This document shows positions 17,520 to 31,139 of a DNA stretch of 34,649 nucleotides, one piece after another. Under the pieces are notes generated by a model. The model did no database searches and was not told the origin of the DNA. It was given only the letters and a program-made list of their open reading frames with translations. The stretch's first letter is position 1. Each line of letters starts with the position of its first letter. A program made the position numbers and the translations under genes. This stretch comes from an uncultured Dehalococcoidales bacterium (GTDB taxonomy: Bacteria; Chloroflexota; Dehalococcoidia; E44-bin15), in assembly GCA_964438305.1 (NCBI GenBank), contig CAYTKL010000002.1:1-34649 (forward strand). Direction: 5' to 3'.

Positions 17520-19184
17520 ATGTTTGACCAGAAGGCATTGCAGCGGATAGATGAGCGCGGCGCGAAGTGGGCCGCCAGGGCCTCTCAGGCGGAGGAGCGG
17601 CGCGACCGCTTCGCTACCAGTTCCGGAATACCGGTCAACAGGCTCTATACGCCGGCGGATATAGCTGGAATGGACTACCTGGCCGACGTCGCCTTTCCTG
17701 GCGAGTACCCCTTCCTTCGCGGCATTCACCCCACCGGACACCGAGGACGGCTGTGGACCATGCGCATGTTCGCCGGTTTCGGCACCGCCGAGGAGACCAA
17801 TCAGCGCTTCAAGTACCTTCTGGAGCACGGCGAGACCGGACTGAGCGTGGCCTTCGACATGCCCACCCTGATGGGCTACGACACCGATGCCCCCGAGGCG
17901 AGCGGCGAGTTCGGCAAGTGTGGGGTGGCGGTCTCTTCACTGGCCGACATGGAGATTCTGTTCGATGGCATCCCCATCGACCAGGTGACGACATCGATGA
18001 CCATCAACAGCCCGGCGGCGGTGGTCTGGGCGATGTACGTCGTCGCCGCCGAGAAGCGCGGCATACCCATGGAGCGCCTCGGAGGGACCATCCAGAACGA
18101 CATCCTCAAGGAGTATATCGCTCAGAACGAGTATCTGTTTCCGCCACGGCCCTCGATGCGCCTCATTGTCGATACCTTCGAGTTCGGCACCAGGCATCTG
18201 CCGCGGTGGAATACCATCAGCATCAGCGGCTACCACATCCGTGAGGCGGGGGCCACCGCTGCCCAGGAGCTGGCTTTCACCCTCGCCGACGGCCTGACCT
18301 ACGTGGAATGGGGCGTGGAGCGCGGTCTGAAGATAGACGATTTCGCTCCCCGGCTCAGCTTCTTCTTCAACGCGCATAACGATTTCTTCGAAGAGGTCGC
18401 CAAGTTCCGTGCGGCGCGGCGCATCTGGGCGCGGGAGATAAAGGCCCGCTACCACCCGCAGGACGAGCGTTCTCTGTGGCTGCGCTTTCACACCCAGACG
18501 GCCGGCTGCACCCTGACGGCACAGCAGCCGGAGGTCAACAGCGTCCGCGTTGCCTTTCAGGCGCTGGCGGCGGTGTTGGGCGGTACGCAGTCGCTCCACA
18601 CCAATGCCCTGGACGAGGCCTGGGCTCTGCCGTCCGACAAGGCGGTGCTCATCGCCCTGAGGACGCAGCAGATTATTGCCCACGAGACCGGCGCGGCGAG
18701 CACGGTGGACCCCCTTGGGGGCAGCTTCGTGGTGGAGGCCCTGACCAATGAGCTCGAAGAGGCGTGCCACGACTACTTTCGCAAGATTGACTCCCTGGGC
18801 GGCGTTATCCCCGCCATAGAACGGGGCTTCTTCCAGCGCGAAATCGCCGAGGCCGCCTATCACTACCAGCATGAGATCGAGGAGCGGGAGCGCATTGTGG
18901 TCGGGGTGAACGACTACATCGTCGACGAGCCCCTCACCATCCCTATCCTGGAGCTGGACGCCGAGGGCGAGAGAAGGCATATCGAGCGGCTCAACCGCGT
19001 TCGCCGTGAGCGAGACGACCGCGAAGTGACGCGGCGGCTCACGGAGCTTCGCCGGGCCGCCGCGGGAACGGACAACCTCATGCCGCCCATCATCGAGGCG
19101 GTGCGGGCCTATGCCACGCTGGGCGAGATATGCGACGTGTTCCGCGAGGTGTTCGGCGTCTACAGCCCGGCGGAGGTCCTGTAG
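17520..19184 (+). CDS. acyl-CoA (methylmalonyl/isobutyryl-type) mutase large catalytic subunit, no B12-binding domain
   Basis: 554 aa. [45 protein letters not shown] and [10 protein letters not shown] are hallmark MCM TIM-barrel motifs. The protein ends before any B12-binding module. Confidence 0.9.
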
Positions 19185-19203
19185 CCGCGGCGCAGCGCGG
19201 TGA

Positions 19204-19233
19204 TTGACAGGTGGCGCAGTTTCCTGTTACAAT
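19204..19233 (+). promoter_or_regulatory. sigma70-type promoter (TTGACA-N18-TGtTACAAT)
   Basis: Consensus -35 at 19204-19209 and an extended -10 TGTTACAAT ending at 19233, about 40 nt upstream of the first aptamer. Confidence 0.6.
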
Positions 19234-19276
19234 GTAAGCTCAATCGCACACTTGGTTTTGAGGCAAAACTGAATAC

Positions 19277-19401
19277 GGCTCCCTCTCCGAGTTGTCCGGC
19301 CTAAACCCCGCCGTGGTGGGGCAGGGGCGGCAACCGGCAGGCGAAAGCCTCGAGGGTGCGGCGAGAAATGGCCACACCTCCCGTGTTTGGAAAGGAGAGA
19401 C
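19277..19401 (+). promoter_or_regulatory. Moco/Tuco (molybdenum/tungsten cofactor) riboswitch-like aptamer, copy 1
   Basis: 5' CCCTCTCCGAG can pair with 3' GGAAAGGAGAG as P1. Internal GGC-GAAA-GCC tetraloop hairpin, CCTCCC and GGAAAGGAG elements match my recollection of the Moco RNA motif. A WtpA gene lies in the downstream operon. Confidence 0.7.
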
Positions 19402-19423
19402 ACTTGTCGTCAACAGGTCAATC

Positions 19424-19461
19424 AATAGCACCCTACCTTGTGATGGGGTGCTATTCTTTTT
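19424..19461 (+). terminator. intrinsic terminator, expression platform of aptamer copy 1
   Basis: AATAGCACCC-loop-GGGTGCTATT followed by CTTTTT. Confidence 0.7.
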
Positions 19462-19528
19462 GCCTCAAGTCTGCCTCAGGACGTCAGGGTCCGGGGGCCG
19501 CGTAGCGGAAGAAAGGACAGAACACAAA

Positions 19529-19649
19529 GGCTCTCCGAGCTGTCCGGCCTAAACCCCGTTCATTCGGGGCAGGGCCGGCAGCCGGCAGGCGAAAGCCTCG
19601 AGGGTGCGGCGAGAAATCGCCACGCCTCCCGTGTTTGGAAAGGAGAGAC
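19529..19649 (+). promoter_or_regulatory. Moco/Tuco riboswitch-like aptamer, copy 2 (SD-sequestering type)
   Basis: Near-identical repeat of copy 1. Its helices are CTCTCC/GGAGAG (P1), CCGGCC/GGCCGG enclosing CCCCG/CGGGG, AGGC-GAAA-GCCT, and GCGGCGA-gaaa-TCGCC. The P1 3' strand is an AGGAG SD located 5 nt before ATG 19651. Confidence 0.7.
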
Positions 19650-19815
19650 GATGGGTGACATCGATTCGGCCGGCAGAGCCTTGCTCATCGAGGCGCTGTT
19701 GCCTCGCTCACGACCGGCCACGGTTGACGCCTTCTATCATGTGGTGCGCCCCCCCTGAGCCTGCCGCTTCCCTAAATGAGAGCGCATGCAAACACCTGTA
19801 ACAAAGGAGCGCAAG

Positions 19816-21261
19816 ATGAAAAGATGGGATCTGGTTGCAGTGGTGTGCGTTCTCGCCCTGCTGGTCGCGGTCATTCCCGGCACCATGCCGGTGGCTGCCG
19901 ACCCGGGCGGGACGACATCGCTCACCATCACAAGATACGACTTCGACGGCACCACGGTGCTGGGTACGGTGACAATGAACGTCACCGAGTTGCAGACTCT
20001 CCCGGTCCAGGGCGATGGCTCAACGCACTACTACCTGCAGGGGCCGACCATGGACCCGCTGAACCTGTGGGACCCCGACGAGACGCTGAACCTGAAGGAC
20101 AAGGGTGCCCTCAAAGGCACCGACGTCGCCGACCTGTGCGACGAGGTGGGCATGTACCCCACCGACGAGGTCGAGGTACTGGCTGAGGACGACTTCGGCC
20201 AGACCTTCCAGTACGTCGACGTGTACGACCCCGAGCCGGAGCAGGGCAAGATGGTGGTGTGCTGGTGGAAGGACGGGGACCTGGTGCCCACCTACGACGA
20301 TGGCATGCAGCTCGTTTTCTTCGCCGAGACCACCAACGGCTCGGGCCAGTACGTGTTCGGCAACTGGGACATGAACCAGACGCTGCCCGAGGACAACCAT
20401 CACTACTGGGGCGACTACCCTTCGTCAAACGGACTGTCGGTGAAGTACATCGACCGCATCAATGTGTACAGCCATGAGTGGGAGTTGACGCTGGACGGCG
20501 ACAGCACCTACGTCATGGACCAGCCGGAGTTCGAGGAAGGGGTAGGATGCCACGAGGTGACATGGGATGACGGCGGCGACATCTGGAGCGGCATACCGCT
20601 GTGGCGGCTGGTCGGCTATGTCGACGATGACAACGTGCACGACTTCAACGACGACCTGGCGGCGGAGGGGTATGAGGTCAAGGTCACAGCCGTGGACGAC
20701 TACAGCAAGACCTTCGCCAGCGCGGACGTGGCACGCAACGACGACATGATCATCGCCAACACCCTCAACGGCGAGCCGCTCGCGGCGAACAAGTTCCCGC
20801 TGCGACTGGTCGGCCCGGACCTGACCGGGGGACAGAAGGTAGGGCAGATTGCCACCATAGAGCTGGTTGGGCTGCCCGAGGGGGACGCCAGCGCGTCGCT
20901 CGGGGCCACCGCCAACGTGGTGCTTCCGACTGTGGGAATCGGCCTGGACCGCGATTCCATAGACTACGGGGACGTTGGCCCGGGTGAAAGCTCCGATGAA
21001 GAGACGGTGAACGTCACCAACGTCGGCACTACCGACGTGGACGTGACCCTTCAGGTCATCGGGGGCAACGGAGTGGCCCAGGACTTCTACGAGCTCTCGC
21101 TTCACCTTGACGGCCTTCTCTTCGACCCTCTGGCGGTCATCGCACACATTCTGGTGGGCAATACCGAAGATGTGGTCACGCAATTGCACGTGCCGTCCAA
21201 CTGGAGCCATGGCGGCGCTCAGGAGGCGGAGTTCATCTTCTGGGCTGAAGCATCACCCTAG
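19816..21261 (+). CDS. secreted three-domain protein: novel SUOX-fold-like N-domain, Oxidored_molyb (YedY/sulfite-oxidase-fold)-like domain, C-terminal Ig-like beta-sandwich
   Basis: AAGGAG lies 7 nt before ATG 19816. Signal peptide MKRWDLVAVVCVLALLVAVIPGTMPVAA. Domain 2 has GCHEVTW...WSGIPLWRLVGYV and KFPLRLVGPDLTGGQKVGQIATIELV. The N-domain is paralogous to the 21915..22772 product. Confidence 0.8.
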   Translation: MKRWDLVAVVCVLALLVAVIPGTMPVAADPGGTTSLTITRYDFDGTTVLGTVTMNVTELQTLPVQGDGSTHYYLQGPTMDPLNLWDPDETLNLKDKGALKGTDVADLCDEVGMYPTDEVEVLAEDDFGQTFQYVDVYDPEPEQGKMVVCWWKDGDLVPTYDDGMQLVFFAETTNGSGQYVFGNWDMNQTLPEDNHHYWGDYPSSNGLSVKYIDRINVYSHEWELTLDGDSTYVMDQPEFEEGVGCHEVTWDDGGDIWSGIPLWRLVGYVDDDNVHDFNDDLAAEGYEVKVTAVDDYSKTFASADVARNDDMIIANTLNGEPLAANKFPLRLVGPDLTGGQKVGQIATIELVGLPEGDASASLGATANVVLPTVGIGLDRDSIDYGDVGPGESSDEETVNVTNVGTTDVDVTLQVIGGNGVAQDFYELSLHLDGLLFDPLAVIAHILVGNTEDVVTQLHVPSNWSHGGAQEAEFIFWAEASP

Positions 21262-21304: not shown

Positions 21305-21361
21305 CGCGGAGCGTGCACCTCGTGGCAACGCTCCGCGCTGTCAAACTGATTGGAGGACTGG

Positions 21362-21952
21362 ATGAGAATCGCAAGGTGGACCGCTCCATTGCTGCTGGCC
21401 GTTCTTCTGGCGCTTCTGCTCTCCAGTACAGCAGACGCTGGCGCCTTCGCCATCGGGCCACCCTCACTGGAGGTCACCGTGCCTTCGGACGGTGAGGCTG
21501 ACGTTTCGGTCTACATCACCTCCGACTTCGATGGCGAGCTGCTCGTCGATACCGAGGGCGTTCCATTCGACGTGGAACCGAAGGTGATAGAGATCGAGGA
21601 TTCATACGTCCAGCAACACGTGGACCTGACCTTCGTCGGGAAGCCCTCAGCCTCCGCCGGCACATATGACGGCAAGGTGACATTCCTCGGCTACATGGGG
21701 GGCAACGTCGCTGGCGGAGTCAAGCTGGAGCTGACGGCGACCGTGACCGGGACGGGGGGCGTTGCCAGTATCGACGAGACTGGCGGCTGGCTGGAGGAGA
21801 ACTACCTCATAGTGGTGCTGGGGGGTCTGGCCGTGGTGGCGCTGGTATTCGGCATCCTGATTGGGAGACGGGGGAGACCCAGGCCGCAGCCGGCACTGGC
21901 AAGGAAGAGAAGACGTGAGTACCCGCAAAGCAAGAGCCGCACTACTCGCTAG
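21362..21952 (+). CDS. signal-peptide, Ig-like beta-sandwich protein with C-terminal TM anchor and basic tail
   Basis: GGAGGA RBS then ATG 21362. MRIARWTAPLLLAVLLALLLSSTADA signal, beta-rich middle, LIVVLGGLAVVALVFGILIG TM segment, then RRGRPRP... tail. No family recognised. Confidence 0.7.
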   Translation: MRIARWTAPLLLAVLLALLLSSTADAGAFAIGPPSLEVTVPSDGEADVSVYITSDFDGELLVDTEGVPFDVEPKVIEIEDSYVQQHVDLTFVGKPSASAGTYDGKVTFLGYMGGNVAGGVKLELTATVTGTGGVASIDETGGWLEENYLIVVLGGLAVVALVFGILIGRRGRPRPQPALARKRRREYPQSKSRTTR

Positions 21953-22772
21953 CATCGTCCTGCTCACGCTCGTTCTGTGGACCGCGCCGGCACTGGCGGC
22001 CGAGCCGACCACATCCGTGCACGTGGTGAAGTACGCCGCGGATGGGACTACCGTTGTGGCCGAGGAGTCGGTGGACTACGAGTGGATGGAGGCCAACCTG
22101 CCGGTGCAGGGCGACGGGGTGACCCACTACTTCCATCAGGGGCCGGTGTTTGAGGGGGACAAGTGGGACCCCGACGAGACGGCGAACCTCAAGGACAAGG
22201 GCGCCCTCATGGGCACGGATATCAGGGACCTGTGTGACCTGGTGGGCGGCATGGCGGATGACGACACGGTCGTCATCTGCGCCGCTGATGGCTACTGTGT
22301 CGACTTCGGCTACAGCACGGTGTACGAGCCTGCGGAGAGGCAGGGGCCGATTGTCCTCTGCTGGTACAACGGCGAAGGTGCCGGTGGTGCGGAGGCACAG
22401 GGTGAAGGGTATGCACCCAGCTACTACGACGCAATGCAACTGGTCTTCATGGCTGAGACCACTAACGAGGACGGCAAGTACGTATTCGGCAACTGGGATA
22501 TGCACCAGTGCCTGCCGGAGGAGGCGCAGCACTTCTACGGCGAGCTCTATCCCTCCACCAACGGACTGTCGGTGAAGTGGATCAGCGAGATACTGGTACA
22601 TTCCAGCGAGACAGCCGTTGCTTCACTGACGGACCCGGCGGACAGTGGCGATACGGACGGACGCTCGACAAACACGTCAAGCCCGATGTGGTGGATCATA
22701 GCCGCATCGGCGCTGGGCGTTGCGGCGCTGTTTCTTGTCGGAGTCGTCATGGGGAAGCTGGTGAGAAGGTGA
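21915..22772 (+). CDS. exported, C-terminally membrane-anchored single-domain paralog of the N-domain of the 19816..21261 protein
   Basis: LPVQGDGVTHYFHQGP...WDPDETANLKDKGALMGTDIRDLCDLVG...MQLVFMAETTNEDGKYVFGNWDM...STNGLSVKWISEILV aligns closely with the first gene. Has a signal peptide and a C-terminal TM (WWIIAASALGVAALFLVGVVMG). GTG 21915 start is tentative and overlaps the upstream gene by 38 nt. Confidence 0.75.
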   Translation: MSTRKARAALLASIVLLTLVLWTAPALAAEPTTSVHVVKYAADGTTVVAEESVDYEWMEANLPVQGDGVTHYFHQGPVFEGDKWDPDETANLKDKGALMGTDIRDLCDLVGGMADDDTVVICAADGYCVDFGYSTVYEPAERQGPIVLCWYNGEGAGGAEAQGEGYAPSYYDAMQLVFMAETTNEDGKYVFGNWDMHQCLPEEAQHFYGELYPSTNGLSVKWISEILVHSSETAVASLTDPADSGDTDGRSTNTSSPMWWIIAASALGVAALFLVGVVMGKLVRR

Positions 22773-23359
22773 TGGCGGGGGCAGACCGAGGCAACCGACG
22801 GCGCGCGCTGGCTCTCATCCTGGCTGTCGTGTGTGGCGTCCTGGCCGTGCTCGCCTGCACCGCCTGCGGAGCGGGAAACACCGCTCACCAGGCCGTCGAG
22901 TGGGACGTCACCCTGGTCGGCGAGGGGGACACGGTCCTCAGCTATGACGACGTGACAGCGATGACGGCCTGTGAGGGCTATGGCGGGTTCTTCACCACGG
23001 TCGGCGTCGTCAACGGCCCCTACCATGCCACGGGCGTTCCATTGCAGGACCTGTGCGAGCTGGCTGGCGGGATTGACCCTTCGCAGGTGGTCCGCGTGTC
23101 GGCTCCCGACGGCTACTCCATGGTATTCAGCTACGCGCAGCTCAACGGCGATTTCGTGACCTACGAGCCGTCCACGATGAATGAAGTCCCGCACGGCGAA
23201 CTCGAGGTAATACTGATGTACCAGCAGGACGGCAAGTATCTGTCGGAGGATTATGGCAGTCCGCTTCGGGTCGCCATAGTCGGCTCGGAGCCACTGCTCA
23301 CCGAGGGGCACTACTGGGTCAAATGGGTGAACAAGGTCGAGGTGTTGAGCTTCGATTGA
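22772..23359 (+). CDS. exported (possibly Tat/lipoprotein) single Oxidored_molyb (YedY/SUOX-fold)-like domain protein
   Basis: TGATG overlap with the upstream stop. N-terminus is MAGADRGNRRRALALILAVVCGVLAVLACTAC (RRR plus a Cys lipobox-like site). Also ACEGYGG...ATGVPLQDLCELAGG and GSPLRVAIVGSEPLLTEGHYWVKWVNKVEV. The track start 22508 is rejected. Confidence 0.75.
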   Translation: MAGADRGNRRRALALILAVVCGVLAVLACTACGAGNTAHQAVEWDVTLVGEGDTVLSYDDVTAMTACEGYGGFFTTVGVVNGPYHATGVPLQDLCELAGGIDPSQVVRVSAPDGYSMVFSYAQLNGDFVTYEPSTMNEVPHGELEVILMYQQDGKYLSEDYGSPLRVAIVGSEPLLTEGHYWVKWVNKVEVLSFD

Positions 23360-23375: not shown

Positions 23376-24452
23376 ATGAGACGGTTCATGAAGGCGCCAT
23401 ACTGGGTGGCATTGGCGCTCCTGCTGGCTCTGATAATAGTCCCCAGCGTGTACTTCAGCCTCGACAACGACAGGACACTGGTCAGGGTCCTCAGCGCCGG
23501 CAGCCTCATCGTGCCCTTCACCGAGATGGAGGCTGAGTTCGAGAAACTGCATCCCGACGTCGACGTGTTCATCGACGGCCACGGCAGCATCCAGGTGATC
23601 AGGCACGTGACCGAGCTGTACCAGGAGGCGGATGTGATGGCGGTCGCCGATTACTCGCTCATTCCGATGTTGATGTACGAGTGCTACATGCCCGATAGCG
23701 GCGAGAGCTATGCCGACTGGTGTGCGCAGTTCGCCACGAACACCCTGGGGATAGCCTACTCTTCGAGCAGCAGGTATGCCGACGAGATCACCGCCGACAA
23801 CTGGTATGAAATCCTCGCCCGGCCCGACGTGACCTTCGGCCTGTCCGACGCACGCTTCGATGCCTGCGGCTACAGGGCGCTGATGGTGTGCCAGCTCGCC
23901 GAGCTGCACTACAGTGACCCCGACATATTCGACACGTTGCTTGGTGAGGCCTTCACCTGGCCCCTGACCGTGGTCGAGGAAGGTGACGTCTACACCATCC
24001 TGGTGCCGGAGATACTGGAGCCGGCGAGCAAGAAGGTCGCTCTCAGGGGTTCCAGCGTCTGGCTGCTGTTCCTGCTGGAGTCCGGCGATGTGGACTACGC
24101 CTTCCAGTACGAGAGCGTGGCGCGGCAGCACGGTCTCGAGTTCCTGCAACTGCCGGTCGAGATTGACCTGAGCTCCTTCGACTACAGCCACGTGTACGAA
24201 CGGGTGAAGGTCAAGCTCGCGTTTCAGCGCTTTCGGTCGGTGGAGCCGGAGTTCGTCGGTCAACCCATCATCTACGGGCTGAGCATACCCAACAACGCGC
24301 CGCATCCGGAACTGGGGGCCGAGTTCATCGAGTTCCTTCTCTCGCCGGCGGGACAGCAGATACTCAGCGAGCAATGGCAGCCATCCATAGACCCGGCTGA
24401 GGTGGACAGGGCTGAGGCTGTGCCTGCCAGCCTTGCGCCGTTGTTCCAGTGA
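23376..24452 (+). CDS. wtpA: tungstate/molybdate ABC-transporter substrate-binding protein, WtpA-like
   Basis: VLSAGSLIVPFTEMEAEFEKLHPDVDV...GSIQVIRHVTELYQEADVMAVADYSLIP...RYADEITADNWYEILARPDVTFGLSD...DACGYRAL...LPVEIDLSS matches the archaeal-type WtpA family as I recall it. N-terminal hydrophobic anchor. Confidence 0.8.
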   Translation: MRRFMKAPYWVALALLLALIIVPSVYFSLDNDRTLVRVLSAGSLIVPFTEMEAEFEKLHPDVDVFIDGHGSIQVIRHVTELYQEADVMAVADYSLIPMLMYECYMPDSGESYADWCAQFATNTLGIAYSSSSRYADEITADNWYEILARPDVTFGLSDARFDACGYRALMVCQLAELHYSDPDIFDTLLGEAFTWPLTVVEEGDVYTILVPEILEPASKKVALRGSSVWLLFLLESGDVDYAFQYESVARQHGLEFLQLPVEIDLSSFDYSHVYERVKVKLAFQRFRSVEPEFVGQPIIYGLSIPNNAPHPELGAEFIEFLLSPAGQQILSEQWQPSIDPAEVDRAEAVPASLAPLFQ

Positions 24453-24518: not shown

Positions 24519-27500
24519 ATGAAGTACTCCCTCGGCTTAGATATTGGCTCGGTCAACGCGAAACTGGCCCTCATCGACCAAGACTGTAGCACAGTTAAGC
24601 TTGACACCGAGAAGATTACCTCGAGTCCCAATGCTGCGGTCGCTTCGCTTATTTCGAGGCTGGGCGCGGACGTATCGTTGGAGGACATCGCCACGGCGGG
24701 CGTGTGCGGCTCCGGCAAGGGCGTCATACCCAAGGACCTGAAGTGGGCGGTATACAGCAGCTCGCTCGCGATCGCCTCGGGACTTCTTCGTTCTTACCCG
24801 GACGCCAAGACCATCATCCAGATTGGCGGCCAGACGTCGCTGGTCATAGAGCTGGAGGACGGGCTCAAGAAGCCGTGGAAGGTGGCGTCCAACCCTCTCT
24901 GTGCCGCAGGCACCGGCAGGTTCATCGAGCAGCAGGCGTACCGCATCGGCATCAGCATCGACGAGTTCGCCCAGTTGGCCCTGCAATGCGAGGAGAGCCC
25001 GCCCCGAATAGCGGCCAGGTGCAGCGTCTTCGCCAAGACCGACCTCATCCACCTCCAGCAGAAAGGCGTGCCGATGACGGCCATGCTCTATGCCCTGTGC
25101 GAAAGCATCGCCCGTCTGGTCGTCTCGTTGAAGAAGGGGCCTTTCCATGAGCCGGTCTACTGTGTCGGTGGTGTTGCCGCCAACAGCGCTGTCTTGAAGG
25201 CGCTGACCGAGGCGGTGTCCGCGAGAAACGGCTACAAGGTCAACATAACTGTCCCCGAGGACTACGGCCATATAGAAGCACTGGGTGCGGCCCTGCTGGC
25301 GGCGGACAGCGGGAAGACGTCCACCGTCGTCCCTATTGAGGAACCCGATATAAAGCAGCGCTACTTCGAGACGTCGAGCCTGGACAGGGTGACCCAGCAC
25401 GACGGCTGGGAGCCGCCGACAATCGACGCGCCGTTTACCGGCTACCTCGGGATCGACATCGGCTCCACCAGCACCAAGGCGGTCATACTGGACGAGACAG
25501 GCACGAGGGTGCTGGCCAAGAACTACCTTATGACCGCGGGCCGGCCGGTTGATGCCATCAAGCAGGTCTTCCGCAATCTGCTCCCCCTGGTCGGGGACAA
25601 AGCCACGATAGCCGGCGTGGGCATCACCGGCTCGGGCAGGTACCTGGTGGGTAGCTTCGTCGGGGCCGACCTGATAAAGAATGAGATCACAGCGCAGACC
25701 CGGGCCGCGGCGGAGATAGACCCTGACGCCGACATAATCGAGATTGGCGGCCAGGACTCCAAGCTCGTCATCAAGCGAAACGGTGTTGTCGTCGACTATC
25801 AGATGAACAAGGCATGCGCTGCCGGTACGGGCAGCTTCATCGATGAGCTGGCTGAGCAGCTAGGCGTGCATGTGCAGGACGGCGAGTTCGCCAAACTGGC
25901 GTTCGATGCGCCCCATACCATCGACCTGGGGTCCAGGTGCGCCGCCTTCATGGGACAGGCGGTCGCGTCGGCCCAGCAGGAAGGCGTGCCCATTGAGGTG
26001 ATAACCGCCAGCCTGTCCAACTCGATTGCGGCCAACTACCTGTCGAAGGTCCTGGGCAACAGGAAGCTGGGGGACACGGTGATGCTGACGGGGGCGGTCT
26101 TCTACAACGACGCCGTCGTCTCCGCGTTTCAGCGGGCCCTGGAAGGCAAGGATACCATCGTGCCGCAGCACAAAGAGGTGAGCGGCGCAATAGGGGCGGC
26201 GCTCCTGGCGAAGGAGCAGATGGGTGGAGAGGGCTCCAAGTTCAAGGGCTTCCAGAACGTCATCGACAGCAATCCCAAGATAAGCACCTTCACCTGCAAG
26301 ATATGCGATAACAACTGCACCATAAGCCGCATGGAGATACCGGGCGAGAAGCCTACCTTCTACGGCAGCAGGTGCGACCTCTTCGACAGCACCATCAGCC
26401 GGGAGAAGATGGAGACCGCTTTCGACGAGCGGGAAAGGTTGCTGTTCAAGGACTACACGGAACGGGCGGGCAGCGGGCCTACGGTCGGGATTCCCCGCGC
26501 GCTCATAGTGTACGACTATGCCCCGATGCTTATCGCCTTTCTAAACGCGCTGGGGGTCAACGTCGTCCTCTCCAGCAAGACCACCAAGGCTATCATAGAG
26601 CGAGCCGTTGAGCTGAGCTATAACGACAGTTGTTTCCCCGTCAAGCTGCTGCACGGTCATGCCGAAAGCCTCAAGGATGTTGACTATATTCTCTACCCCA
26701 GCGCCATCCGCATGGGGCTGAAGGAGGGGGACGAGAACCAGAAGTACACCTGCCCCCTGGTGCAGGCATCCCCGTATATCATTCGTCAGGCTCTGGACTT
26801 CGGCAAGGAGCTGCTCATACCGACCATAGACTTCAGCCGCGGGGACAAGCTGACCACAGACAGCCTTGCCGATTGCGCCGTGCAGATGGGGTTCAGCCGC
26901 GCGAAGGGCAAGAAGGCTGCCCGTGCCGGCATTGAGGCGCAGCGACAGTTCGAGGCGGCTGAGGTGGAGGCGGGGCAGAAGCTCCTGCAGCGGCTTCACG
27001 ACAACAACGAGTTGGGCGTTGTGCTCCTGGCCCGGGCGTATATGTCGCAGGATGCCGGGGCCAACCTGGGCATAGCGGAGAAGCTCGCTCAGCTCGGCGT
27101 GGTGCCGGTGCCAATGACTTTCCTGCCGCTGAAGTCGGTGAATGTCTACGAGTACTCGGACCGGCCCTACTGGTACTACGAAGGCAAACACATCGCCGCC
27201 AGCGCTCTCACCGAGCGGGACCCGTCGCTCTACGGACTGATACTGACCAACTTCGGATGCGGCCCCAACTCCTTCATAATCAATATCGTTGAGGACATCA
27301 TGGGCGGTCAGCCTCTGGGTCAACTGGAGATCGACGAGCACGCCGCTGAGGCAGGCATCGTGACCCGCCTCGAGGCCTTCGTCGATACGATAAAGGCGTT
27401 CGCTCGCTCCGGGGCGCAGGCCAAGGGGTGGGACGAGAACGCCTACCGCTCGGCCCCGGTAAGCTTGAGTACGGGCAAGACCATCCTGTTGCCACGGATG

Positions 27501-28670
27501 GCGCCTGGTGCGGAGGCTATGGCGGCGGCGATGGAGGCCTTTGGAGTGAAAGCGGCGGTGCTCCCGCCCTCCACTGAGGAGTCCCTTCTCTACAGCAACA
27601 AGGTGACACGGGGCACGGAGTGCCTGCCCTACCGCGTCACCCTCGGCGATTTCCTCAGGTACTTCCATGAGAACGGGGCCGACACCCTGCAGCAGGTCGA
27701 GGGGTTCATGCCCAGCGCCTTCGGGCCCTGCCGCTTCGGCAAGTATGTGGTGGAGGAGACCAGGATTCTCCGGGAAATGGGCTACGACCTTTCCATCCGC
27801 ACCACCGTGTCCAACAACGCCTATCGTGACATGGGCCTCGGGCGTGCCTTCGAGCGCCTGGCATGGCGCGGCCTCGTCTCCTTCGATTACCTGCAGCGCC
27901 TTCTGTGGCGTACTCGCCCCTACGAGAAGTCCCCCGGCACGGCGGACGCGTTGTTCGACGACTACACCGCCCGCGTTGCCGACCGCATCAGGAAACGGGA
28001 GGACTTCGGCGACGTGCTGCGCGACGCCGTTTCCGCCTTCGGCTCAGCCATCGACCCGGAGAAGCCGAAGCGACCGCTGGTGGCCATCAACGGCGAGATC
28101 TTCCTGCGCTCCAACGAGTTCAGCAACAGCTACTTGGTGAGGGAATGTGAGAAGGCGGGTCTCGAGGTTATCGTCTCGTCCGTCGGGGAATGGGTGAAAT
28201 ACATCCAGCACCGCAATATCGAGGACGGCGTGTGGGACAGGGATGTGAAGAAGGTCCTGTCCGGCGTCATCAGGAGGCGCATACTGAGGACCGATGAGGA
28301 AATGGTGGCCGCCGCCTTCGAGGGCCTGCCTCATATGGGAGAGCCTTCCACTAAGGAGCTGCTGTCCTGCTCCGCCGACCACATCTCTTCAGACTGCGGT
28401 AGCGAGGCCGTCCTCAGCATAGGGTCCGGCGTTGAATGGCTGGAGAATCCCCGCTTCGCCGGGGTCATATCGGTGATGCCGCACGGCTGCATGCCCGGGG
28501 GTATTGTCGCCGCCATGTCAGAGAAGCTCGCCGCCACCCACGGCAAGCCGTGGATCAACCTCACCTATGATGGCTTCATCGAGACGACCAACCTGGAGAG
28601 AATCAACAACTTCGCGGAGATAATACGCTTCTGCAGCGCCGGCGGTGAACTCGCCCTCGCCGCTGTCTAG
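24519..28670 (+). CDS. fused double BcrAD/BadFG-type ATPase (CoA-substrate-specific enzyme activase) plus 2-hydroxyacyl-CoA-dehydratase-like (DUF2229) domains
   Basis: 1383 aa. Two ASKHA ATPase modules (LGLDIGSVNAK..., LGIDIGSTSTK...), each with cluster-Cys motifs (NPLCAAGTGRFIE/ARCSVFA and NKACAAGTGSFID/SRCAAFM). Then a CKICDNNC Cys motif and two dehydratase-like halves (GIPRALIVYDYAP..., CFPVKLLHGH...). Confidence 0.85.
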   Translation: MKYSLGLDIGSVNAKLALIDQDCSTVKLDTEKITSSPNAAVASLISRLGADVSLEDIATAGVCGSGKGVIPKDLKWAVYSSSLAIASGLLRSYPDAKTIIQIGGQTSLVIELEDGLKKPWKVASNPLCAAGTGRFIEQQAYRIGISIDEFAQLALQCEESPPRIAARCSVFAKTDLIHLQQKGVPMTAMLYALCESIARLVVSLKKGPFHEPVYCVGGVAANSAVLKALTEAVSARNGYKVNITVPEDYGHIEALGAALLAADSGKTSTVVPIEEPDIKQRYFETSSLDRVTQHDGWEPPTIDAPFTGYLGIDIGSTSTKAVILDETGTRVLAKNYLMTAGRPVDAIKQVFRNLLPLVGDKATIAGVGITGSGRYLVGSFVGADLIKNEITAQTRAAAEIDPDADIIEIGGQDSKLVIKRNGVVVDYQMNKACAAGTGSFIDELAEQLGVHVQDGEFAKLAFDAPHTIDLGSRCAAFMGQAVASAQQEGVPIEVITASLSNSIAANYLSKVLGNRKLGDTVMLTGAVFYNDAVVSAFQRALEGKDTIVPQHKEVSGAIGAALLAKEQMGGEGSKFKGFQNVIDSNPKISTFTCKICDNNCTISRMEIPGEKPTFYGSRCDLFDSTISREKMETAFDERERLLFKDYTERAGSGPTVGIPRALIVYDYAPMLIAFLNALGVNVVLSSKTTKAIIERAVELSYNDSCFPVKLLHGHAESLKDVDYILYPSAIRMGLKEGDENQKYTCPLVQASPYIIRQALDFGKELLIPTIDFSRGDKLTTDSLADCAVQMGFSRAKGKKAARAGIEAQRQFEAAEVEAGQKLLQRLHDNNELGVVLLARAYMSQDAGANLGIAEKLAQLGVVPVPMTFLPLKSVNVYEYSDRPYWYYEGKHIAASALTERDPSLYGLILTNFGCGPNSFIINIVEDIMGGQPLGQLEIDEHAAEAGIVTRLEAFVDTIKAFARSGAQAKGWDENAYRSAPVSLSTGKTILLPRMAPGAEAMAAAMEAFGVKAAVLPPSTEESLLYSNKVTRGTECLPYRVTLGDFLRYFHENGADTLQQVEGFMPSAFGPCRFGKYVVEETRILREMGYDLSIRTTVSNNAYRDMGLGRAFERLAWRGLVSFDYLQRLLWRTRPYEKSPGTADALFDDYTARVADRIRKREDFGDVLRDAVSAFGSAIDPEKPKRPLVAINGEIFLRSNEFSNSYLVRECEKAGLEVIVSSVGEWVKYIQHRNIEDGVWDRDVKKVLSGVIRRRILRTDEEMVAAAFEGLPHMGEPSTKELLSCSADHISSDCGSEAVLSIGSGVEWLENPRFAGVISVMPHGCMPGGIVAAMSEKLAATHGKPWINLTYDGFIETTNLERINNFAEIIRFCSAGGELALAAV

Positions 28671-28673
28671 GCT

Positions 28674-29420
28674 CTAGTACTCCCGCGACACTCCCTGGGC
28701 CGGGTGGCCCACCACGCTCATGTAGACCACGCTTTCCTCGACCCCATCCACGCCCAGTATCCGGTTCACTTCATCATCGAACAGGGCCCCGACCTGGCAA
28801 CTGCCCAGCCCTATGCTGACCGCGGAGAGCGCCAGGCCGTGTCCCACGTGGCCGGCGTCGAGGTACACGTAGCGGTACGCCCGCTGGCTGTACTTCCATT
28901 TGGAGCGGTTGAAGATGGCCGTCCACACGAACACCACCGCGGCGTCGGCGCATATCCGCTGCCCCAGCGCCGCCCGGGTGATATCCTGCCCCAGGTCCCC
29001 CGTGCGCAGCTCCTCCAGGGCGTGCTCTCGAATGGCGTAGTGATAGGCGCCGGGCGGCACCCCCTCCACGTCATGGACAATCACGTAGGTCTCCACCGGA
29101 TAGAGGGCGCCCGCCGACGGGACGGTGCGGAACTCATGCCCGCGCTCCATGCTCCGGATGCCGTTTGACGCCCACAGCAGGTACGACAACTGCTCCAGGC
29201 TGATGGGCTTTCCGGCGAAAGAGCGAACGCTCCTGCGCCGCCGTATGGCCTCGTCCAGACTCATGTGTGAGCCCTCCGGAGGGGTGGGCAGCTCTATCCT
29301 GTTGCCGCCGGGGTACTCCTTGTACGGTTCGGGAAGCGCCATCCGCTCGCTTCCCGCCACCGCCCTGTCGCGATAGTACTTGGTGTCCTGCTGAAATGCG
29401 TCGCCCACTCCGTTGGCCAT
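28674..29420 (-). CDS. SagB/ThcOx-family nitroreductase-fold dehydrogenase
   Basis: RRRRSVRSFAGKPISLEQLSYLLWASNG...VPSAGALYPVETYV...AYRYVYLDAGHVGHGLALSA is the SagB-type pattern. GGAGGAGG RBS precedes ATG 29420; the track start 29498 is rejected. Confidence 0.8.
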   Translation of the reverse strand: MANGVGDAFQQDTKYYRDRAVAGSERMALPEPYKEYPGGNRIELPTPPEGSHMSLDEAIRRRRSVRSFAGKPISLEQLSYLLWASNGIRSMERGHEFRTVPSAGALYPVETYVIVHDVEGVPPGAYHYAIREHALEELRTGDLGQDITRAALGQRICADAAVVFVWTAIFNRSKWKYSQRAYRYVYLDAGHVGHGLALSAVSIGLGSCQVGALFDDEVNRILGVDGVEESVVYMSVVGHPAQGVSREY

Positions 29421-29518
29421 GTGCAACCTCCTCCGACCGCTGGCCAATTGTACCCCAATCGGGCACGGGAGTGATACCGAGTGCCGTTTGGCGCGCACGC
29501 ACGGCTGCCACCGCTTCG

Positions 29519-29543
29519 GTAGGGGCGTTCAATTGAACGCCCC
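29519..29543. repeat. perfect 22-bp palindrome GGGGCGTTCAATTGAACGCCCC (plus GTA flank), left copy
   Basis: Identical palindrome at 31271-31292. The flanking GTA/TAC extends the pair into a 25-bp inverted repeat. Confidence 0.9.
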
Positions 29544-29586
29544 CGCAAACGCTGGTGCTGCGGTGCCGCAGCAATGTGTATGGCCG

Positions 29587-29615
29587 TTGACAGGGTCGGC
29601 CATTCCTGCTACAAT
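29587..29615 (+). promoter_or_regulatory. sigma70 promoter (TTGACA-N17-TGcTACAAT) of the arsR-family gene
   Basis: Consensus -35 and extended -10, 44 nt upstream of ATG 29659. Confidence 0.65.
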
Positions 29616-29625
29616 GATGATAGAT

Positions 29626-29639
29626 TTAGCGATTACGCA
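29626..29639 (+). promoter_or_regulatory. 14-nt motif TTAGCGATTACGCA, copy 1 (candidate operator at about +5 of the promoter)
   Basis: Exact second copy at 30048-30061, upstream of the permease. Confidence 0.4.
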
Positions 29640-29658
29640 ACTATTAAATGATGGTGCC

Positions 29659-30018
29659 ATGGCAAGCGAACAGGACAGGTGTGAGGTACACGTGATACAC
29701 CCGGAGAAGGTGGCCGAGGCAAGGCGACGCCTGCTCGACGACAGGGCCTATGCCAGCCTGGCGGAGACCTTCGGTGCGCTGGCGGACTCCAACCGCGCCA
29801 AGATCGTCTACAGCCTTCTGGAGCAGGAGCTTTGCGTGTGCGATATCGCCGCTGTTGTCGGCATATCCGAGTCGGCGGTCTCCCAGCACCTGCGAATCCT
29901 GCGCAACCTGAGACTGGTGAAGCAGCGCAAGGAAGGCCGCATGATGTACTACTCGCTCGACGACGACCACATCCACAAGCTCCTCGACGTGTGCCTGGAG
30001 CACGTCGGCCACGACTAG
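29659..30018 (+). CDS. ArsR/SmtB-family metal-sensing transcriptional repressor
   Basis: ELCVCDIAAVVGISESAVSQHLRILR wHTH with the alpha3 C-V-C site. C-terminal DDH-x10-H-x2-H is an alpha5-like site. ATG 29659 lies downstream of the mapped promoter, so the track start 29413 is rejected. Confidence 0.88.
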   Translation: MASEQDRCEVHVIHPEKVAEARRRLLDDRAYASLAETFGALADSNRAKIVYSLLEQELCVCDIAAVVGISESAVSQHLRILRNLRLVKQRKEGRMMYYSLDDDHIHKLLDVCLEHVGHD

Positions 30019-30191: not shown

Positions 30192-31139
30192 ATGCTGATT
30201 GCGATACTTGAGAGCTTCTGGCGGTTCCTACTGGAGGCGGCGCCATGGCTGCTGCTGGGCTTCCTCTTCGCCGGCCTGATGAGCACCTTCATCCCGTCAC
30301 AGGTCATACTCCGCTACGTGGGGAGGGGCAACGTCAGGTCCATACTCGCTGCGACCTTGATAGGCATCCCCCTGCCCCTGTGCTCCTGCGGCGTCATCCC
30401 GACGGGCATAGCCCTGCACCGGCAGGGGGCGTCTCGGGCCGCCACCATAGCCTTTCTCGTCGCCACGCCGGCGACCACTATTACCGCCATCATCATCACC
30501 GTGGCCATGCTCGGCTGGCGCTTCACCGTCCTCTACGTTGCCGCTGCAGTGGCGGTGGCCATCATCACCGGGCTGGCGGCCCTTGTCCTTCTACGGGAGG
30601 GGCCGCGGCAGGCCGTTGCGAACACGGCTGCGTGCGGGTGTGTGGAGGGGAGCGATTGCTGTGAGTCGGCGGCGCCCGGCTGCACCTGCGGCAGCCAGTG
30701 GGCCTGTGGGGTGCACGGGTTCTGGGAGCGCGTGAGGGCGACCTTCCGCTACGGCTTCGTTGACATGGTGGGGGACATCGGTCACTGGATCGTCATCGGT
30801 CTGGCGGCGGCGGCCGTGCTGACCGCCCTCATTCCGCAGCACGTCATCGGCGAGTACCTCGGCGGTGGCCTGCTGTCACTGGTGATAGTGGCGCTGGTGG
30901 CCGCGCCCTCGTATGTCTGTTCCACCGCCACGGTCCCCTTCGTCGCCGCCATGGTGGCCGGCGGGATGGATCCCAGCGCCGGCCTGGTCTTCCTCATCCT
31001 GGGACCGGCGACGAACCTGTCCACTATTCTCGTCGTTGGCAGGTCCATGGGCAAAGGGGCCGTTGCCCTCTACCTCGGCTGCGTACTGGTGCTGTCCGTC
31101 GGCGTGGCGTACGTCTTCGATGCGGGGGGTCTGCTATGA
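30192..31139 (+). CDS. DUF318/COG0701 permease (ArsP / SO_0444-type metal(loid) efflux permease) with Cys-rich loop
   Basis: GIPLPLCSCGVIPTG signature, about 8 TM helices, and a central loop CGCVEGSDCCESAAPGCTCGSQWACGVHG. Downstream of the arsR-family gene. Confidence 0.8.
   Translation: MLIAILESFWRFLLEAAPWLLLGFLFAGLMSTFIPSQVILRYVGRGNVRSILAATLIGIPLPLCSCGVIPTGIALHRQGASRAATIAFLVATPATTITAIIITVAMLGWRFTVLYVAAAVAVAIITGLAALVLLREGPRQAVANTAACGCVEGSDCCESAAPGCTCGSQWACGVHGFWERVRATFRYGFVDMVGDIGHWIVIGLAAAAVLTALIPQHVIGEYLGGGLLSLVIVALVAAPSYVCSTATVPFVAAMVAGGMDPSAGLVFLILGPATNLSTILVVGRSMGKGAVALYLGCVLVLSVGVAYVFDAGGLL

Follow-up and report, generated by a model that had tools for sequence, protein, structure and literature searches.

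Tandem Moco-class aptamers with different expression platforms, and a leader ORF ending in Pro-Pro-stop, upstream of a wtpA-containing cassette in an uncultured Dehalococcoidales bacterium

Why should two copies of one riboswitch aptamer stand behind a single promoter, and how could the second of them act on an operon when the start codon next to it opens a short leader open reading frame (ORF) and not the first gene? The question is raised by contig CAYTKL010000002.1 of an uncultured Dehalococcoidales bacterium (assembly GCA_964438305.1), of which we analysed positions 1 to 34,649 (34,649 nt, hereafter the window). A reading made from the sequence alone had described two tandem aptamers of the molybdenum cofactor (Moco) or tungsten-cofactor type here, the first with a transcriptional and the second with a translational expression platform. 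We consider it probable that the locus carries a bi-mechanism tandem of two OFF riboswitches in which the second copy acts through the leader ORF on a five-gene cassette, the OFF logic being assigned by analogy with the E. coli moaA riboswitch.

Two aptamers and their expression platforms

RF01055, the Moco RNA motif, matches the + strand of the window twice and nowhere else in it (cmscan, Rfam 15): aptamer 1 lies at 19273-19413 (74.3 bits, E = 2.4e-16) and aptamer 2 at 19521-19661 (83.1 bits, E = 6.2e-19), both cover model positions 1-135 of 135, and both exceed the gathering score of 36 bits, as the sequence-only reading had predicted. The P1 strands are at 19283-19288 and 19394-19399 in aptamer 1 and at 19531-19536 and 19642-19647 in aptamer 2, with P3 at 19335-19352 and 19583-19600, respectively. 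The two copies form a true direct repeat with a spacing of 248 nt, as had been seen in the letters, with 96% identity between 19283-19310 and 19531-19558 (28 nt) and 95% identity between 19318-19401 and 19566-19649 (84 nt). They differ in P2 and P4 only, all junction nucleotides being identical. In P2 one U-A pair is exchanged for C-G, a compensatory change, the distal loop differs and copy 1 contains a G-G mismatch; in P4 two positions differ. The minimum free energy (MFE) structure of each copy folded alone is the consensus P1/P2/P3/P4/P5 architecture (-57.2 and -66.1 kcal/mol), and both copies have a four-way junction, i.e., P3 is present. Both also carry a GAAA tetraloop, the receptor-like CCUAA element, and the junction sequences CUCCGAG, AGGG, CCUCCC, and GGAAAGGAG. 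The receptor half reads CCUAAA...CAGGG in the window, against the canonical CCUAAG...UAUGG in relatives lacking P3.

For comparison we used 173 loci (L001-L173) encoding relatives of gene 1, the first gene of the cassette, which were scanned with Rfam and with a covariance model derived from 21 of the aptamers; L001-L078 constitute a named genome set, and the metagenomic loci carry no taxon labels. The closest named relative is a Chloroflexota metagenome-assembled genome (L001, 69% identity in gene 1), and the syntenic metagenomic loci L159/L160 reach 83%. In an alignment of 48 related aptamers, standard pairs occupied 92.3% of the cells, compared with 39-50% when the partners were slid by 1-3 columns; compensatory changes were found at 15/23 pairs (13/23 in a separate comparison), and 0/500 shuffles matched the observed values. 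The two outcomes that had been named in advance as fatal to the aptamer assignment, an absent RF01055 match and helices unsupported by covariation, were therefore both contradicted by the data. Doublets occur upstream of the cassette in 16 other distinct Chloroflexota-type loci, with P3-containing or P3-lacking aptamers (doublet loci: L159/L160, L170, L001, L162, L172/L173, L005/L083, L006, L007, L020, L107, L108, L113, L082, L123, and L167), and L052 carries a triplet; L161 and L168 are cut by contig ends. The layout that recurs in 16 other loci is aptamer, terminator, aptamer, short ORF ending in Pro-Pro-stop, about 55-64 nt, and gene. An (A/C)(C/T)TGAATA motif recurs just 5' of the aptamers in the window (19264-19273), L005, L007, L020, L164, L167, and L172, and is probably part of the outer P1 extension in the Rfam model.

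Both copies lie behind one promoter, in agreement with what had been read from the sequence: a sigma-70-type site, TTGACA-18-TG-TACAAT, at 19204-19233 on the + strand (11/12 matches) is the sole promoter-like site in 18900-20100, where 0.2 would be expected from shuffles. The transcription start is expected near 19240. TTGACA promoters occupy the equivalent site upstream of aptamer 1 in L159, L001, L162, and L172.

The intrinsic terminator that had been proposed after copy 1 was recovered by our scan at 19424-19461 (+ strand) and consists of a 12-bp stem (19424-19455) with an 8-nt loop, followed by CTTTTT (dG = -17.6). A hairpin with a T-run follows aptamer 1 in 13/13 doublets scanned, 19-32 nt past the GGAG of P1 and with dG from -11 to -20 kcal/mol; it also follows aptamers 1 and 2 of the L052 triplet and, by inspection, aptamer 1 of L167, L170, and L172. 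In the pre-terminator transcript (19241-19443), the MFE structure pairs AGGGUGC in the 5' strand of P4 (19353-19359) with GCACCCU in the 5' arm of the terminator (19428-19434). It is plausible from this folding model that the pairing serves as an antiterminator that is barred in the ligand-locked aptamer. With cofactor bound, P1 and P4 would be locked, the 5' arm of the terminator would be free, the hairpin at 19424-19461 would form, and transcription would stop; without ligand, 19353-19359 would pair with 19428-19434, and RNA polymerase would read through. In loci lacking P3, the 5' arm of the terminator carries CUCCUU instead, which is complementary to the 3' strand of P1. The termination logic is general, with the window's antiterminator as a putative detail.

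Could copy 1 be a decaying duplicate, with copy 2 the only working riboswitch? Its score is the lower of the two (74 vs. 83 bits), its P2 and P4 contain additional non-canonical pairs, and the ORF trailing it has no coding signal. That score is nevertheless twice the gathering score and the junction nucleotides are all intact, the orthologues at this position in L159 and L170 have retained the fold, with changes in both strands of P4, every tandem examined has an aptamer 1 followed by a terminator, and copy-1 sequences form an old clade of their own in P3-lacking lineages. We therefore regard decay of copy 1 as very improbable. The trailing ORF, of 33 codons with TTG/GTG start (19404-19505, + strand), crosses the terminator. 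It has equal length in L159 and L170, with changes by codon position of [7,8,11] and no third-position bias; a role as a second leader peptide was rejected because no codon-position bias exists, and the ORF is probably a relic of a duplicated aptamer-plus-leader unit. We also observed that TTGAGGCAAAA in the 5' leader (19258-19268) is perfectly complementary over 11 nt to TTTTGCCTCAA just past the U-run of the terminator (19458-19468). The full-length MFE structure contains this pairing, which is not conserved in L159, L001, L162, and L172, and we take it as incidental.

Behind copy 2, the 3' strand of P1 carries the Shine-Dalgarno (SD) sequence of the leader ORF: GGAGAG (19642-19647) ends 3 nt before the ATG at 19651, which is 5 nt from the GGAG core. 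When P1 of aptamer 2 was enforced, the predicted unpaired probability of this SD fell to 0 from 0.37 (0.54 with the 5' strand of P1 blocked). A start codon lies 5-7 nt past the GGAG of aptamer 2 in 13/13 doublets scanned, and 12 of these 13 have no terminator-like hairpin after aptamer 2, the remaining one being weak (L082, dG = -9.9). L172, unlike those, has a terminator-like hairpin after aptamer 2 too. The overlap of P1 and SD that the sequence-only reading had pointed out is thus real, and no terminator lies behind copy 2. The translational control deduced from it is borne out for the leader ORF, whose ATG this is, but not directly for the operon, of which the first gene starts at 19816; because the start codon next to copy 2 belongs to the leader ORF, translational control of the operon needs an additional coupling step.

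The P1 helices of the two aptamers are 131 nt apart (end of P1 in aptamer 1 to start of P1 in aptamer 2) under the one promoter, and no gene overlaps the riboswitch region on either strand, the program-listed ORFs there being mechanical. In a bi-mechanism tandem, a single leader contains two complete riboswitches that share a ligand and lie <300 nt apart, with no gene between them (PMC9481103). The window falls into this class, with a terminator after the first riboswitch, control of a ribosome-binding site (RBS) by the second, and the same ligand deduced from the identical cores.

A leader ORF ending in Pro-Pro-stop

The leader ORF (19651-19758, + strand) has 35 codons and encodes MGDIDSAGRALLIEALLPRSRPATVDAFYHVVRPP-stop, ending RPP-stop with Pro-Pro-stop at 19750-19758. 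Its stop codon is 57 nt from the start of gene 1 (19816), and the corresponding distance is 54-64 nt in 15/18 loci. Exactly 35 codons with a CCN-CCN-TGA end are found in eight diverged loci (the window, L170, L159, L001, L161, L162, L164, and L172). The leader ORFs of other lineages are unalignable with the 35-codon one, yet they occupy the same position and end in PP-stop or PP-x-stop: (Y/H)PP-stop after 23 aa in L020, L107, L108, and L113; CPP-stop in L006 (9 aa); QPP-stop in L167 (10 aa); RPP-stop in L168 (9 aa); DPPS-stop in L005 (20 aa); and SPPR-stop in L163 (36 aa). Pro-Pro-stop is in frame with an SD-proximal start codon in at least seven otherwise unalignable leader families, and the chance of an ending of this type is 0.001-0.014 per locus, as estimated from mononucleotide shuffles of each leader. 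In most leader families an aromatic or His residue stands five positions ahead of the first Pro, giving [Y/H]-x4-Pro-Pro-stop.

The nucleotide changes in this ORF are consistent with selection on the peptide. Between the window and L159, the changes in the C-terminal 21 codons are [3,1,10] by codon position, with 8 synonymous and 3 nonsynonymous (P = 0.004), and between L001 and L161 those in the leader ORF are [3,3,9] (P = 0.03). Each of the two Pro codons is found with any of the four bases at its third position. These codons do not covary with the SD of gene 1, as L162 sets CCACC against GGAGG, and L164 and L172 set CCUCC against GGUGG, which argues for a constraint at the level of the peptide or of termination and against an anti-SD role; the latter was rejected also in view of L006 and L162, in which the partner of the SD is predicted downstream of the stop codon. 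Judged from these substitution patterns, the leader ORF is probably translated, with its C-terminus under selection. The peptide lacks conservation in its N-terminal half, while the length of the ORF is fixed.

The leader ORF contains a hairpin at 19668-19703 (+ strand, dG = -17.9) with the tail TCGCTCAC and no U-tract. It is conserved, with compensatory changes at 6/14 pairs, and the homologous tails are ATTTTGCC in L164 and TTTTGCCC in L172. In L164, which has a single aptamer (ORF 1090-1197), and behind aptamer 2 of L172 (ORF 509-616), the 35-codon ORF spans the hairpin followed by UUUU. This hairpin looks like a terminator in both loci, with 4 U's where our scan demands five and hence below its threshold, so that one aptamer could affect termination and leader translation together. 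In the lineage of the window, the U-tract was lost by substitution (CTA TTA TTT TGC to CTG TTG CCT CGC).

How would the leader ORF be coupled to gene 1? The gene-1 ATG follows an SD, AAAGGAG (19802-19818 for both, + strand), and homologues start at an equivalent M(K/R)R.... In 10/16 loci the ribosome-binding region of gene 1 has a predicted pairing partner within ~30 nt of the 3' end of the leader ORF, which fits unmasking by a translating ribosome. Direct long-range action of aptamer-2 P1 on the gene-1 SD was rejected, as no effect is predicted: enforcing or blocking P1 left the accessibility of this SD, 160 nt downstream, unchanged in all four loci computed. We propose that, in transcripts that have been read through, ligand-stabilized P1 would hide the GGAGAG SD of the leader ORF, and that expression of gene 1 would then depend on translation of the leader. 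Slow termination at Pro-Pro-stop is established in E. coli. Two routes seem most likely: the ribosome lingering at the slow Pro-Pro-stop might open the helix between the leader 3' end and the ribosome-binding region of gene 1, or it might shield the short spacer from Rho.

Several observations weigh against this proposal. The accessibility of the gene-1 SD did not rise consistently when a ribosome was modelled as stationary at the stop codon, so that the unmasking step lacks thermodynamic support. The third-position bias is significant in close pairs only, being gone in distant pairs, which are saturated, and the constant length of 35 codons could come partly from RNA-level spacing constraints. 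Pro-Pro is kept but read past in two loci, L007 and L082. The antiterminator pairing of riboswitch 1 is only partly conserved: by inspection, L170 retains 7 bp, one of them a wobble pair, and L159 retains 5 bp.

Some of these points would also be expected of an ordinary pseudo-cooperative tandem to which the leader ORF contributes nothing. Aptamer 2 would then directly control the operon, by long-range refolding or Rho-dependent termination, and the ATG and Pro-Pro-stop would be by-products of constraints on the RNA. The ribosome-footprint model without consistent unmasking, the conservation of the in-ORF hairpin at the RNA level, and the fixed length of an ORF whose N-terminal half is free to vary are all compatible with such an arrangement. 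It is harder to reconcile with a gene-1 SD that is insensitive to the state of P1 in the four loci computed, with in-frame Pro-Pro-stop in so many unalignable families, with Pro codons that vary at third positions only and without SD covariation, and with the excess of synonymous changes between the window and L159, and we consider it unlikely. Our preferred reading remains the bi-mechanism tandem acting through the leader ORF. We further suggest, tentatively and with less than even confidence, that copy 2 gates a nascent peptide, [Y/H]-x4-Pro-Pro-stop, serving to pause or arrest the ribosome in a programmed way, and that an ancestor comprising aptamer, leader, and terminator was later split. 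The ribosome-based step might then be unmasking of the SD, shielding from Rho, or sensing of a second signal (e.g., the free oxyanion).

Ligand class, cassette, and evolution of the tandem

The sequence-only reading had left the choice between Moco and the tungsten cofactor to an inspection of P3. A P3 stem is reported to mark the Moco type, and its absence the W-cofactor type (Regulski et al. 2008, PMC2408646). Both copies contain this stem (GGCAGGCGAAAGCCUC), and the window aptamers are accordingly of the Moco type by the sole published criterion. The two most likely sense the same cofactor because both carry P3 and identical junction cores. Orthologous cassettes stand under P3-lacking tandems in nine loci (L005, L006, L007, L020, L082, L107, L108, L113, and L167), so that the P3 class follows the lineage and not the operon; either the effector tracks the cofactor of each host, or P3 is unreliable as a discriminator. 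The same cassette under P3-containing or P3-lacking aptamers offers a natural test bed for the P3 rule, which is still unproven.

The cassette ends, as had been noticed, in WtpA, a tungstate/molybdate substrate-binding protein (23376-24452, + strand; TIGR03730, 328 bits vs. a cut-off of 243; NF003196, 343 bits; SBP_bac_11), and neither wtpB nor wtpC is adjacent to wtpA in the window. An exact-sequence look-up of this WtpA returned no record. WtpA reportedly binds both molybdate and tungstate oxyanions (Bevers et al. 2006, as cited in PMC2408646) and for that reason does not settle the choice between Moco and the tungsten cofactor. A protein that handles tungstate as well as molybdate might be thought to call for a two-input gate, with one aptamer for Moco and the other for the tungsten cofactor, and mixed tandems do exist in relatives (P3-lacking, P3-lacking, and P3-containing in L052; P3-containing and P3-lacking in L123). 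Both copies in the window carry P3, however, and are identical at unpaired and junction positions, differing in helix positions and one loop, which makes a two-input gate at this locus scarcely credible. We return to the tandem as a probable sensor of one cofactor.

The remaining cassette genes are all on the + strand. Gene 1 (19816-21261) encodes an exported protein of 481 aa with a signal peptide, a partial PF00174 match, and a SUOX/PruR-like domain. Its AlphaFold (AF2) model has a pLDDT of 76, and Foldseek matches it to sulfite oxidases and PruR pterin-binding proteins with target-normalised TM values of 0.6-0.69, the match to PruR, a periplasmic pterin-binding protein (PMC11194511), being compact. 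The signal is Sec-type and not clearly Tat-type, which is unusual for a Moco enzyme. Gene 2 (21350-21952, 200 aa) has no family match; gene 3 (21861-22772) encodes a paralogue of the N-terminal domain of gene 1 (48% identity), with a hydrophobic C-terminal stretch, seen by inspection, that suggests a membrane anchor; and gene 4 (22772-23359) encodes a small PF00174-like protein. The start codons of genes 2-4 are uncertain. L159, L001, L161, L164, L167, and L168 share the order g1-g2-g3-g4-wtpA, and homologues of g1, g3, g4, and wtpA occur together, with or without g2, in Methanomicrobiales, anaerobic methanotrophic archaea (ANME), Bathyarchaeota, and related archaeal loci (L003, L004, L022, L044, L057, and others). 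No Moco aptamer was found beside the archaeal cassette copies in the archaeal loci among L001-L078. The role of the cassette may be guessed to be the extracellular capture of a pterin or of Mo/W. The riboswitches tie this widespread uncharacterised cassette, common to methanogens and ANME archaea, to Mo/W-cofactor homeostasis.

Upstream of the promoter, a methylmalonyl-CoA mutase gene ends at 19184. Downstream, 66 nt past wtpA, lies a gene for a protein of 1383 aa in which two BcrAD/BadFG ATPase modules are fused to DUF2229, of the CoA-enzyme activase type (24519-28670); it is syntenic in L159 and has no homologue within the fetched stretch of L001, and is therefore probably outside the cassette. 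It is followed by a gene for a SagB-type nitroreductase-fold dehydrogenase on the - strand (28674-29498), an ArsR-family regulator (29413-30018), and an SO_0444-family Cu/Zn efflux permease (30192-31139).

The history of the two copies differs between clades. In the P3-containing clade the copies within a genome are alike: those of L001 are 93% identical, and copy 1 of the window resembles its neighbour, copy 2 (85%), more than the orthologue in its own position in L159 (81%). Such likeness points to repeated duplication or gene conversion. Among the clades without P3, sequences of copy 1 and copy 2 mostly belong to separate old groups, with L006 and L167 as exceptions. The ORF that spans a terminator-like hairpin in L164 and L172 suggests a dual-acting ancestral unit composed of aptamer, leader ORF, and embedded terminator, which was duplicated and later divided in function; copy 1 would have retained the terminator and copy 2 the peptide. 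The relatives, with single aptamers followed by an in-ORF terminator-like hairpin, split tandems, and tandems mixing aptamers with and without P3, form a natural series for studying how tandem riboswitches evolve. Among the mixed ones, L052 has two P3-lacking aptamers and then a P3-containing one at 62-688, the second of the three being preceded by a promoter-like TTGACA...TAGAAT, and L123 has a P3-containing aptamer and then a P3-lacking one at 1938-2210; should the P3 rule hold, such tandems would act as two-cofactor gates.

Comparison with known riboswitch tandems and leader peptides

Tandem riboswitches of one class are less uncommon than the sequence-only reading implied. Tandem Moco RNAs were reported in S. 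wolfei and G. metallireducens in 2008 (PMC2408646), and 13 Moco doublets and 2 triplets were counted in 2022, all Moco tandems being classed as pseudo-cooperative only and placed upstream of cofactor biosynthesis genes (PMC9481103). Our literature search turned up no report of a bi-mechanism tandem composed of two Moco-class aptamers (the 13 doublets of the 2022 survey were not matched against our loci), of a Moco tandem linked to this cassette in Chloroflexota, of a Moco riboswitch structure, or of a riboswitch-gated leader ORF ending in Pro-Pro-stop.

The window pair shares with the Moco RNA motif, as presented in 2008 (PMC2408646), the P1-P5 fold, the GAAA tetraloop, the CCUAA receptor-like element, and the association with Mo/W genes, and its second copy resembles the E. 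coli moaA riboswitch of that account in having the RBS within the 3' strand of P1. It differs from known Moco RNAs in three respects. First, it stands before genes for exported SUOX/PruR-like proteins and WtpA, and not before moa or mod genes. Second, the start codon of the second aptamer opens a leader ORF and not the regulated gene. Third, its hosts are of Chloroflexota type, and the abstract of the 2008 paper does not name Chloroflexota among the carriers of the motif (PMC2408646).

Bi-mechanism tandems are known from SAM-II followed by SAM-V and from some SAM-II doublets (Poiata et al. 2009, as cited in PMC9481103). The order in the window is the one seen in SAM-II/SAM-V tandems, a terminator riboswitch first and an RBS riboswitch second, with presumably the same ligand for both; in contrast to them, both window aptamers belong to one class, and a leader peptide lies between the second riboswitch and the gene.

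The parallels for that leader peptide come from another group of systems. Leader peptides that act by way of their proline codons or through termination pausing, beside an RNA sensor, include mgtL in the Mg2+-sensing mgtA leader, TnaC, which ends in Pro-stop and blocks Rho, and SecM upstream of secA. The likeness consists of a short ORF in the 5' leader, a conserved C-terminus ending in proline(s)-stop, and a fixed short distance to the gene; the differences are that no sequence similarity exists, that initiation of the window peptide would be gated by a cofactor aptamer, and that stalling is hypothetical here. As a device the tandem belongs to a known kind; what is new in it is the leader peptide. 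If our reading is true, a cofactor aptamer that switches a Pro-Pro-stop leader peptide would add a distinct coupling mechanism to expression platforms, which are normally taken to consist of RNA alone.

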